From: Escherichia coli
GTDB lineage: Bacteria; Pseudomonadota; Gammaproteobacteria; Enterobacterales; Enterobacteriaceae
Length of the DNA stretch: 64,000 nt
Assembly: GCF_030013205.1 (NCBI RefSeq)
Contig: NZ_CP122648.1
Reading direction: 5' to 3' (one strand)
The notes below the pieces were generated by a model. The model did not search any database. It was not told where the DNA came from and worked only from the letters and a program-made list of their open reading frames with translations. The translations under genes were made by a program, and so were the position numbers. Shown piece after piece: positions 32,996 to 34,087 of the stretch. Each line of letters opens with the position of its first letter. Positions within the stretch are counted from its first letter, which is position 1.

Positions 32996-33283
32996 GGATT
33001 ACGTACCTCCCGGTTCTGCCGGGAGTTACATGGCCTGAAATTCTGTATTTCATTGCTACATTCATTCAAACCACCTGTAACAAAAAGCTGCCTTTGACGA
33101 TCTATTGCTATAAATAAGTGAACTTTTTTCTTTAATTGTTTATTTATTTTAAAATGGTTAAGTTTTGCTAATCATGATGAGCTATTTTTGATAGTTCATC
33201 CTGTGGTGTCGCTCTTAAACTTATATTGTAAATGACTTAGATTTAAATGAGATAATAATTTTGTTAACAATATGAGGCGGGAG

Positions 33284-34087
33284 ATGTTTTCTACAAACTT
33301 AATACAGAGTGATTATGGTAATTTAAATATTAAAAACCTTGCCTTCGACTCTTTTAAAGAAAGACTGCAGTCTACCATGACAGCACTCACTTTCTTTATA
33401 TCAACGGGTCAATGTGCCTGCGATGAAATAGCAGAATCAAACTTCAATTATATGATTGCCTATATGTCTAACATTAACTATGATGCCTCAAAGCCAGGAG
33501 CGCCAGCACTTAGTTTTGATACATATCTGCAGGACAATGTTAAATATAGAGTGATAATTAATAATCTTTATGGTAGTGAAATTAGGATAAGAGGTATTAA
33601 TGAGAATTTTGTTGGGATGGATTTTACCTGTGAATTCCGACCAGAAAAAATGACCAATTTGATCAATATAAAAAACAGGTTGGTTATTCACTATTTAAGA
33701 ACGATATACTATGAACAAAATTATATACATCCTGCCGGGAGCATTTTTGCTGCGATTCAAAAAAATGAGAGTCTCCTAAAATTTCCTTCGGTAATATCAA
33801 TGCTTAATGTCAATCTTCTTTTTAATCCACTAAATCTTCCGGGAATGGGAAGTGGTGTGCTTGAAGAGATTATGAGTATTTCAGATAGTTCACTTAGAAA
33901 ACGTCTTGGGTATGAGGTTTTAAGCTTCTCGCTACAAGCACATTCATTGAGTCAGGAATGTATCGATAAGTTAGCCATTTTTTTCGCTGACGATCTGTTT
34001 AAATATGAGTCAGTATGCATCGCCGCGATGGAACATTTAAAAAGTAAGGCAACGGCCCCTATACAAAACGGACCGTTGCCAGCATAA
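33284..34087 (+). CDS. ydjO: uncharacterised protein (AT-rich gene)
   Basis: ORF 33272..34087; strongly AT-rich with AT-rich upstream region; synteny. Confidence 0.75.
   Translation: MFSTNLIQSDYGNLNIKNLAFDSFKERLQSTMTALTFFISTGQCACDEIAESNFNYMIAYMSNINYDASKPGAPALSFDTYLQDNVKYRVIINNLYGSEIRIRGINENFVGMDFTCEFRPEKMTNLINIKNRLVIHYLRTIYYEQNYIHPAGSIFAAIQKNESLLKFPSVISMLNVNLLFNPLNLPGMGSGVLEEIMSISDSSLRKRLGYEVLSFSLQAHSLSQECIDKLAIFFADDLFKYESVCIAAMEHLKSKATAPIQNGPLPA

Follow-up and report, generated by a model that had tools for sequence, protein, structure and literature searches.

The region analyzed here is located in a stretch of Escherichia coli DNA of 64,000 nucleotides (hereafter, the window), which shares 99.8% identity with E. 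coli CFSAN018748, where katE (minus strand), cedA (plus strand), ydjO (plus strand, 33284-34087) and tcyP (minus strand) are annotated. The interval from the cedA stop codon to that of tcyP (32996-34086) comprises 1091 bp with approximately 35% G+C, and it is referred to below as the block. A first-pass annotation had described ydjO and its upstream sequence as markedly AT-rich, and this description was confirmed: positions 33000-34087 have a G+C content of 34.7%, against 49.8% for the whole window. When G+C was calculated in sliding windows of 1088 bp (mean 0.498, sd 0.049), the lowest value of the entire 64 kb (0.344) was found at start position 32981, approximately 3.1 sd under the mean and far below the local range, and windows of 300 bp likewise placed the minimum of the 64 kb (0.273) in this region, with its start at 33041. 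The cedA-ydjO spacer (32996-33271) has a G+C content of 31.5% and the ydjO open reading frame one of 35.8%, while katE, cedA and tcyP have 51.3%, 51.9% and 53.2%, respectively. By codon position, G+C in ydjO is 0.41/0.34/0.32, as compared to approximately 0.60/0.41/0.51-0.59 in its neighbors. In addition, TpA steps and A4+/T4+ tracts each occur in the block at twice their density in the window, and hexamers resembling a -10 element at 3.3 times that density; the A/T tract cited in the first-pass annotation, TTTATTTATTTTAAAATGG, lies at 33141-33159. Regarding its edges, the match to the alternative, block-less allele described below stops at the cedA stop codon and picks up again at 34087, and the interval first proposed, 33000-34087, is within 4 bases of the edges found here.

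We then focused on the individual features of the block. Directly 3' of cedA, a terminator-like hairpin on the plus strand (inverted repeat I9, GTACCTCCCGG-N5-CCGGGAGTTAC, 33003-33029) marks the left edge; it is kept in K-12, in Escherichia sp. MOD1-EC7003 and in the host of a deeply diverged ydjO allele (P0005), and another hairpin is found in its position in E. albertii. At the right edge, the last 13 ydjO codons form a second inverted repeat (I18, unstranded, GGCAACGGCCC-N11-GGACCGTTGCC, 34048-34080), next to which a T-run is present on the minus strand, as in a minus-strand terminator-like site, and its core, GGGCAACGGCCC, is retained in E. albertii. This right-edge hairpin is terminator-like for the convergent tcyP gene, and probably for ydjO as well. 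Two plus-strand copies of a 12-bp direct repeat (family D7) are located inside these edges, the left one, TGACGATCTATT, at 33095-33106 and the right one, TGACGATCTGTT, at 33988-33999. A sigma-70-type promoter, ATGACT-16-AATAAT, is predicted for ydjO on the plus strand at 33232-33259, followed by the Shine-Dalgarno-like sequence GAGG (33274-33277, plus strand) placed 6 nt ahead of the annotated ATG, for which reason the annotated start at 33284 is favored over an upstream ATG at 33272. The coding sequence (33284-34087, plus strand) specifies an orphan protein of 267 amino acids belonging to no family, and contains an A7 homopolymer at 33759-33765, also read on the plus strand. Within ydjO, two overlapping matches (33957-33972, unstranded) to the high-affinity H-NS motif TCGATAAATT, with one mismatch each, could be detected; with up to two mismatches, the motif has 86 matches in the window versus 66 +/- 9 expected, an excess that is weak and uninformative alone. 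A search of Rfam with 32400-34400 gave no match in the block, the sole hit being a chance one to a nematode snoRNA (23 bits versus a threshold of 50 bits).

Upstream of the promoter, a 20-nt element on the plus strand, ATGAGCTATTTTTGATAGTT (33177-33196), contains the imperfect dyad GAGCTAT-N5-ATAGTTC, and its center lies approximately 79 nt ahead of the transcription start predicted for ydjO. It occurs once in the window and is invariant between E. coli, the P0005 allele and E. albertii, despite the fact that the E. coli and E. albertii blocks as a whole are 52% identical. That this element is unchanged across deeply diverged alleles is a new, if minor, point, and we consider it a candidate site for the binding of a regulator, with a presumed regulatory role.

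Binding of H-NS to the locus was evaluated from published data, in which the cedA/ydjO spacer is H-NS-bound in two ChIP-chip sets and carries an H-NS mark in genomic SELEX (PMC3661553, PMC3946193). Panyukov and Ozoline (2013) included 'ydjO(-)/cedA(-)', with 320 bp, among 78 listed H-NS-bound promoter islands; the island was bound in the ChIP-chip data of Kahramanoglou and of Oshima (Table 1 therein), i.e., in two of the three data-set groups that were compared (code K, and not A, which denotes all studies), and ydjO was predicted as foreign by two methods, that of Nakamura and that of Lawrence and Ochman (PMC3661553). RpoD genomic SELEX reported the ydjO promoter as ATGACT-16-AATAAT, with the same hexamers and spacing as in our prediction, and marked it 'HNS', the H-NS site adjoining this constitutive sigma-70 promoter (PMC3946193); moreover, SELEX sites for both the RpoD and the RpoS holoenzymes fall in the spacer (PMC3946193, PMC5493296). 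Thus, ydjO as an AT-rich locus targeted by H-NS is already known and catalogued as a promoter island. The published presence of both H-NS and RNA polymerase at this spacer, in an island classed as transcriptionally unproductive, indicates that its likely state is that of a promoter repressed by H-NS; actual silencing of ydjO, which the papers only imply, is what we infer from them. Any such silencing would not be absolute, as ydjO has been tabulated among the serum-responsive genes of an ExPEC strain (PMC4145685), although that signal could instead represent antisense read-through from the convergent tcyP. Regarding the promoter island itself, promoter-like sites occur in the block at 4.2 times the density of the window, but the four sites present match the 4.5 +/- 1.8 obtained in dinucleotide-preserving shuffles of the region, which suggests that it is base composition that gives rise to the 'promoter island' property.

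The presence or absence of the block was scored over 5426 complete E. coli genomes. It is carried by 4264 of them (78.6%), and is missing from 1124-1131 (approximately 21%), in which a contiguous arrangement of cedA, 43 bp with one hairpin, and tcyP is observed. The type strain ATCC 11775 is among the ydjO-less strains and, judging from this strain, A0 34/86 and an ST80 strain, much of phylogroup B2 would seem to be devoid of ydjO. Placement of the gene 'inside the core', as first annotated, therefore holds for the flanks only, ydjO itself being accessory. In the empty E. coli haplotype, CedA ends in ...QENEVEE and the hairpin is CGCCTGTCGGGATGACAGGCG; this haplotype is common to E. whittamii, Escherichia sp. 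E1V33 and strains SCPM-O-B-8794 and E69, the latter two labelled as E. coli, yet with a tcyP distance from E. coli equal to that of E. whittamii. Citrobacter, Salmonella and Enterobacter have a CedA terminus of the form ...QENExxx and then one hairpin, in spacers of 50-110 bp, and the architecture of a short spacer with the ancestral hairpin was found in over 40 further species of Enterobacteriaceae. As the empty sites share their architecture with the outgroup genera, the block is a derived insertion or replacement relative to Enterobacteriaceae, rather than ancestral core DNA. The filled sites of E. coli, MOD1-EC7003 and E. albertii in turn have in common a different CedA terminus, of the form ...QEGEV[T/A]E, which points to a single origin of the block.

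It could be argued that ydjO is ancestral in all E. coli, that the genomes without it are deletions, and that its low G+C content reflects mutation bias or relaxed selection. A gene carried by more than three quarters of the genomes, always at the identical site, would be in agreement with this, as would its presence at that same position in E. albertii, which is the farthest removed of the Escherichia sampled (tcyP dS 0.70-0.76). Losses do occur as well: strain ES4 had ydjO removed by an IS1-mediated deletion, frameshifted copies are found, and MOD1-EC7003 has lost 893 bp between the two 12-bp direct repeats, as read from the junction. However, the sole true deletion observed, that of MOD1-EC7003, retains both ends of the block, while the empty site bears no scar and presents the CedA C-terminus and hairpin of four other Escherichia lineages, in an architecture shared with other genera, so that a deletion would need to re-create the empty-site sequence exactly. 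Homologous recombination may have re-supplied the empty allele; nevertheless, even in that case the block would still be an insertion of derived origin when compared with Enterobacteriaceae, and we regard ancestry in the E. coli core as improbable.

The reading of the region as typical of xenogeneic DNA is thus supported by its low G+C content, by its status as a derived insertion and by the published H-NS occupancy. The E. albertii copy, at the same site, has a G+C content of 34%. This equally AT-rich copy indicates that the acquisition is old and that low G+C is not a mark of recent arrival; it also implies that the low G+C content is being maintained, and is not a foreign signature in the course of fading. 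Judged from these comparisons, acquisition is older than the diversification of E. coli. No mobility signature (terminal inverted repeats, target-site duplication, integrase, transposase or tRNA) was found at 32996/34086, and no donor or vehicle matched among phage records, true plasmids or IMG/VR; three 'plasmid' matches were discarded as mislabelled chromosomes of 4.8-4.9 Mb. An identifiable donor or vehicle is not needed for targeting by H-NS.

Homologues of YdjO were found only in E. coli/Shigella and E. albertii, in searches covering 5.8 billion proteins and 1.84 billion cluster representatives. The E. albertii orthologue (P0075, 257 amino acids, 125 member sequences) is encoded between cedA and tcyP, and shares 35% pairwise identity with YdjO; it was recovered in full length only by profile search (E = 5.5e-64), the E. 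albertii fragment used as a query retrieving one short protein. No significant match to YdjO was obtained in Pfam, NCBIfam, PHROGs, PADLOC, PDB sequences, phage records or IMG/VR, the best family and structure scores being at chance level (E = 0.008, with 14.6 bits against a cut-off of 450, and E = 0.016 to a designed helical repeat), and models of transposases, integrases, defence proteins, toxins and effectors also failed to match this sole open reading frame of the block. Structure prediction with AlphaFold2 gave pLDDT values of 36 (single sequence) and 43 (alignment of seven sequences), too low for the fold to be used. Other candidate relatives were discarded. A 299-amino acid protein (P0034, 26% identical, E = 5.6e-35 in the search of representatives) is encoded on a contig (L058) collinear with 32695-34678 of the window, flanks included, with nearly all of the differences, read on one strand, being A>G (551) or G>A (410); it is E. 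coli DNA originating from a library in which purines were scrambled or converted, and not a relative. YahL and YjfZ, whose lengths are similar to that of YdjO, are not detectable as paralogues: in BLASTP against YdjO, YahL gave no alignment at E <= 100, and YjfZ gave chance-level segments only (best E = 2.1).

Analysis of substitution rates showed that ydjO has a dN/dS of 0.17-0.28, as compared to 0.01-0.05 for katE and tcyP. Moreover, it has been lost in many lineages, through frameshifts, IS1 insertions and deletion. Two truncated forms, ending in ...AAIQKK* (P0013, 2273 member sequences) and ...AAIQKMRVS* (P0012, 149), are the exact products of +1 and -1 slippage, which identifies the A7 run at 33759-33765 as a frameshift hot spot. 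Overall, ydjO is a real but weakly constrained and dispensable gene.

The divergence of ydjO opens another explanation, namely that the gene is under diversifying or balancing selection, for instance as a conflict or host-interaction protein, under tight H-NS control and with a dedicated regulator. Such selection would account for the deep alleles and for the presence/absence polymorphism. For the pair E. coli and E. albertii, ydjO has a pS of 0.69, above the 0.38-0.47 of the flanks, and YdjO proteins are 35% identical where the flanking proteins are 93-98% identical. Similarly, the P0005 allele has a dS of 0.87 over its 5' 630 bp versus 0.03-0.15 in its own flanks, and is a mosaic that is 78% identical to the window in 5' ydjO and 99% in 3' ydjO; the invariant upstream element could be the site of action of the regulator. 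Taken further, ydjO would be an anciently polymorphic, fast-evolving locus, with alleles much older than their carriers that passed from one Escherichia species to another by homologous recombination via the conserved cedA and tcyP flanks, with AT richness itself selected so as to keep ydjO subject to H-NS, and with a regulator that releases the gene by binding to the dyad; in such a scenario, which we consider to have only a slight chance of being correct, diversifying or balancing selection may maintain the gene. Nevertheless, every pairwise dN/dS falls well short of 1, the defence, toxin and effector models are all without a match, frequent pseudogenes speak for dispensability, and excess divergence could also result from introgression or from a raised mutation rate in silent AT-rich DNA, all of which make this selection unlikely as the explanation of the locus.

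Finally, local birth of the block, as a de novo gene or by runaway expansion of the spacer, with ordinary non-coding composition as the source of its AT richness and without any transfer, would fit the lack of homologues outside Escherichia in the databases searched, the lack of mobility signatures and pLDDT values as low as is often the case in young proteins, but we find it doubtful, since the ancestral spacer of 43-110 bp has no sequence in common with the block and could not have supplied 1.09 kb locally, the hairpin of the ancestral site was swapped out rather than lengthened, and dN/dS well below 1, even across an allelic split as deep as a dS of 0.87, indicates that the open reading frame has long been a selected coding sequence.

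Altogether, we propose that the locus is an old, lineage-restricted, AT-rich block carrying the orphan gene ydjO and targeted by H-NS, an explanation that, taken as a whole, we hold to be quite probable. In an ancestor within the genus Escherichia, a 1.09-kb AT-rich block would have displaced a short cedA-tcyP spacer with a single bidirectional terminator hairpin, and would have brought with it ydjO, equipped with a sigma-70 promoter and Shine-Dalgarno sequence of its own, as well as hairpins at both edges. With a G+C content of 31-36% and doubled frequencies of TpA steps and A/T tracts, such DNA is of the kind on which H-NS nucleates and spreads. The constitutive-type promoter and the incidental promoter-like sites may be kept down by an H-NS filament across the block, so that ydjO would be expressed only upon relief of silencing, for which the invariant 20-nt dyad is a candidate counter-silencer or activator site, and the product is a real, weakly constrained and dispensable protein. 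In this proposal, composition, edges, derived status, distribution, orphan status, purifying selection and decay come from the present analysis, and the occupancy by H-NS and RNA polymerase from the papers cited.

As H-NS-targeted AT-rich DNA, the ydjO locus is nothing new in kind. It does offer a clean example of an insertion, with filled and empty haplotypes recognizable by their junctions across species, and is useful for studying how a silent AT-rich gene persists, spreads via flanking homology and decays, while the invariant upstream element provides a concrete handle on what, if anything, switches ydjO on. On the practical side, ydjO was put forward as a qPCR marker for water testing that would be universal in, and exclusive to, E. 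coli/Shigella. As approximately one fifth of the complete E. coli genomes are without it, ydjO-based assays are bound to under-count some E. coli, and the distant orthologue of E. albertii bears on the exclusivity of the marker. That ydjO is neither universal in nor exclusive to E. coli is thus a second minor point that is new.

Three types of known systems can be compared with this locus. The ydjO spacer is like the H-NS-bound promoter islands (PMC3661553) in being AT-rich and H-NS-bound, in containing a SELEX site for RNA polymerase and in adjoining a gene predicted as foreign; these islands are part of the general model of xenogeneic silencing by H-NS, and the foreign status of ydjO was here independently confirmed by outgroups. 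It differs in that the low-G+C block extends over 1.09 kb and includes the entire gene, as opposed to the 320 bp listed, and in that its acquisition predates E. coli diversification, the E. albertii copy being equally AT-rich. YdjO has also been described, together with YahL and YjfZ, as one of the taxon-restricted 'conserved signature proteins' of E. coli/Shigella (PMC11057252). In agreement with this, its homologues are confined to a very narrow group, and no function is assigned to it; in K-12, the G+C content of the yahL region is similarly low (33-42%), and the yjfZ spacer has likewise been marked as an H-NS site (PMC3946193). In contrast to such a signature, YdjO is not universal, being missing in 20.8% of the complete E. 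coli genomes and frameshifted or disrupted by IS elements in others, and it is not exclusive, given the 35% identical orthologue at the same site in E. albertii. Lastly, clyA/hlyE and the bgl operon are cryptic AT-rich chromosomal loci with a competent promoter held off by H-NS, and loci of this type usually become active when a specific counter-silencer binds upstream. The ydjO locus may be likened to them, its 20-nt dyad standing as a candidate for the corresponding counter-silencer site.

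We focused our attention on the A+T-rich interval between cedA (32732-32995, + strand) and tcyP (34091-35482, - strand), hereafter the block, which carries the orphan gene ydjO. This gene (+ strand) runs from its annotated start at 33284 to 34087, with a longer ORF opening at 33272, and is convergent with tcyP, the two stop codons lying 3 bp apart. The first-pass annotation had described 33000-34087 as strongly A+T-rich relative to its neighbours, and this is borne out by its G+C content of 34.7% (cedA-ydjO spacer, 31.5%; ydjO ORF, 35.8%), against 53.2% in tcyP, 51.3% in katE (30288-32549, - strand), 51.9% in cedA and 49.8% in the whole window. 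Moreover, G+C over 1088-bp windows of the 64-kb sequence reaches its minimum in this interval (0.344; mean 0.498, sd 0.049), which contains the lowest 300-bp window as well (0.273, starting at 33041), while GC3 is 0.32 in ydjO versus 0.51-0.59 in its neighbours. TpA steps and A/T tracts occur at twice the window density. That annotation had also reported long A/T tracts, and its coordinates were at most 4 bases off the true block edges. A second large low-G+C stretch was observed at 40931-43998 (300-bp minimum, 0.31); it consists chiefly of espL1 (41418-43316, - strand), annotated as the type III secretion effector EspL1, and also covers the small gene yniD, being a candidate for another acquired segment, possibly targeted by H-NS.

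When a query spanning cedA to tcyP was searched against 5426 complete E. coli genomes, the block was found to be collinear with the window in 4264 (78.6%), while in approximately 1130 both flanks were matched, the record span shrinking from 2140 to 1091 bp. Contiguous empty sites, i.e., short spacers without ydjO, numbered 1131 with an empty-allele query and 1124 with a 151-bp junction probe. Type strain ATCC 11775 and probiotic strain A0 34/86 are among the empty genomes; both belong to phylogroup B2, to which the empty state may be limited. In a direct comparison with the empty allele, homology stops at the cedA stop codon and restarts at window position 34087, so that the block comprises 1091 bp (32996-34086) replacing 43 bp. 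The 43-bp spacer contains a single hairpin, CACCTGTC-GGGAT-GACAGGCG.

An outgroup scan with CedA, covering one genome per bacterial species, yielded 54 loci. In Citrobacter, Salmonella, Enterobacter, Kluyvera and others, tcyP lies 50-110 bp after cedA, with no YdjO-like sequence between the two genes and a spacer architecture as in empty Escherichia. The short spacer of empty E. coli was also detected in E. whittamii, Escherichia sp. E1V33, SCPM-O-B-8794 and E69. Although SCPM-O-B-8794 and E69 carry an E. coli label, their tcyP distance from E. coli equals that of E. whittamii. In these four entries CedA has the same C-terminus (...QENEVEE) as in empty E. coli, the hairpin is nearly identical, and the architecture extends to other genera. 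The comparison thus strongly indicates that the empty state is ancestral and, consequently, that the ydjO block is derived, having either been inserted or replaced the spacer. The filled haplotypes of E. coli, Escherichia sp. MOD1-EC7003 and E. albertii have another CedA end, ...QEGEV[T/A]E, which points to a single origin. MOD1-EC7003 represents a true deletion, in which 100 bp of the block remain at either end and 893 bp between 12-bp direct repeats, TGACGATCT(A/G)TT, at 33095 and 33988 have been lost. In two E. albertii loci (L066 and L006) katE is absent upstream of cedA, and cedA comes directly after chbG, a pair of genes that katE separates in E. coli and most other genera.

Regarding its anatomy, the block opens with a hairpin just 3' of cedA (33003-33029), and carries the sigma-70-type sequence ATGACT-16-AATAAT (33232-33259), given as the ydjO promoter in an RpoD genomic SELEX study (PMC3946193). 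GAGG can be read 6 nt upstream of the ydjO ATG at 33284. At the right edge, the last 13 codons of ydjO contain a hairpin (34048-34080), after which comes a minus-strand T-run; the block thus now provides the tcyP terminator, a role taken over from the ancestral hairpin. No terminal repeats, target-site duplication, integrase or tRNA was found at the block edges, and an Rfam search of the block returned no RNA family. E. coli and E. albertii blocks are 52% identical overall, and ATGAGCTATTTTTGATAGTT (33177-33196) is the single invariant run (20-21 nt) upstream of ydjO. This run occurs once in the window, is intact also in P0005, a deeply diverged ydjO allele, includes the imperfect dyad GAGCTAT-N5-ATAGTTC and is centred approximately 79 nt upstream of the predicted ydjO transcription start, being the best candidate for a regulator site.

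YdjO (267 aa) matched no Pfam, NCBIfam, PHROG or PADLOC model and no PDB sequence, no relatives were found in phage records, true plasmids or IMG/VR, and AlphaFold2 models reached pLDDT values of 36 and 43. Searches of 5.8 billion proteins and 1.84 billion cluster representatives retrieved only E. coli/Shigella sequences; a profile search led to an E. albertii orthologue (P0075; 257 aa, 35% identical, 125 member sequences), whose gene lies between cedA and tcyP. This copy has kept a G+C content of 34%, and low G+C is therefore no evidence that the gene arrived recently. YdjO has been put forward as a signature protein that is conserved in E. coli/Shigella and found nowhere else (PMC11057252), a status needing minor correction on both counts, given the E. 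albertii orthologue and the fact that YdjO is absent from approximately 21% of complete genomes and degraded in many more. The other two proposed signature genes, yahL and yjfZ, look similar in kind to ydjO, and their products were rejected as relatives, having no similarity to YdjO. The K-12 yahL region (gene at L059 4177-4992) has 33-42% G+C, and the SELEX table (PMC3946193) flags an H-NS site for the spacer of yjfZ (L060 1629-2423 in K-12). An apparent 26%-identical relative, P0034, was also discarded, as an artefact of E. coli DNA with A/G swaps: its whole contig (L058, Logan assembly SRR33321306) is E. coli cedA-ydjO-tcyP with one-strand A<->G interchange at approximately 960 sites, probably from a base-conversion sequencing library, and gives rise to a false distant homologue in protein databases.

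Pairwise dN/dS values of 0.17-0.28 for ydjO, compared with 0.01-0.05 for katE and tcyP, show that it is genuinely coding and that purifying selection acts on it, though weakly. It is also more diverged from K-12 (95.1% identity) than its flanks (96.9-98.9%), and between E. coli and E. albertii its pS is 0.69, near saturation, versus 0.38-0.47 in flanking genes. P0005 is a mosaic, with approximately 630 bp (roughly 33160-33790) at a dS of 0.87 and a 3' part and flanks 99% identical to the window. By tcyP dS from E. coli, MOD1-EC7003 is nearest (0.15-0.20) and E. albertii the most distant Escherichia sampled (0.70-0.76), while intermediate lineages are empty; the filled haplotype therefore either moved between lineages via flank recombination or persisted as a long-lived polymorphism. 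We consider it improbable that ydjO represents an old locus undergoing diversification and served by a regulator of its own. Decay is recurrent. Slippage by +1 and -1 in the A7 run at 33759-33765 would yield precisely the two truncated proteins that are observed, one ending in ...AAIQKK* (2273 member sequences) and the other in ...AAIQKMRVS* (149). In STEC strain 2013C-4187, ydjO is frameshifted and contains an internal stop, and one strain carries IS1 within the gene. A deletion in strain ES4 extends from celF in the chb operon into ydjO, sparing only its last ~60 bp, and IS1 copies are present where the two ends meet.

Further differences were observed along the window relative to E. coli CFSAN018748 (99.8% identity). 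One extra G at 36869, compared with this and all other aligned strains, divides hxpB/yniC (36368-37037, - strand) into ORFs of 166 and 87 aa; the gene may be a true pseudogene, or the assembly may be wrong here. In yniA (37761-38620, - strand), an A7 run at ~38180 is one A short, and the resulting frameshift (ORFs of 261 and 97 aa) is likely a homopolymer error. Approximately 70 substitutions cluster in pheT (48551-50186), versus about one difference per 1.5 kb elsewhere, resembling a recombination tract. The xthA-astC spacer has a 9-bp indel (TTTTTATTC) at 14437, in a short low-G+C stretch. Apart from this strain comparison, the window carries an IS3-family element, IS1397, between topB and gdhA (1507-2855).

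The first-pass annotation had read the region as xenogeneic DNA silenced by nucleoid proteins, which is supported by its lineage restriction (present in 4264 of the 5426 genomes, empty in 1124-1131), its A+T richness and published data. "ydjO(-)/cedA(-)" is one of 78 promoter islands, where RNA polymerase and H-NS are both bound and little full-length RNA is produced; H-NS binding there, at the cedA/ydjO spacer, appears in the Kahramanoglou and Oshima data sets, and ydjO was predicted as foreign by two methods (PMC3661553). In addition, the spacer is marked as an H-NS site next to a constitutive promoter (PMC3946193), and an RpoS holoenzyme site has been reported therein (PMC5493296). Promoter-like sites reach 4.2 times the window average density in the block, with no excess over same-composition shuffles, and are thus a by-product of A+T richness. 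The mechanism best supported by published binding and composition is that H-NS would nucleate and then spread across the entire 1.09-kb block, silencing ydjO by repressing its promoter together with incidental promoter-like sites. Serum-responsive genes tabulated for an ExPEC strain include ydjO and convergent tcyP (ydjN) (PMC4145685), and the ydjO response could result from relief of silencing or from antisense read-through. Altogether, the ydjO block belongs to an established class, that of H-NS-bound, A+T-rich, lineage-restricted DNA, and is already recognized as a member of it.
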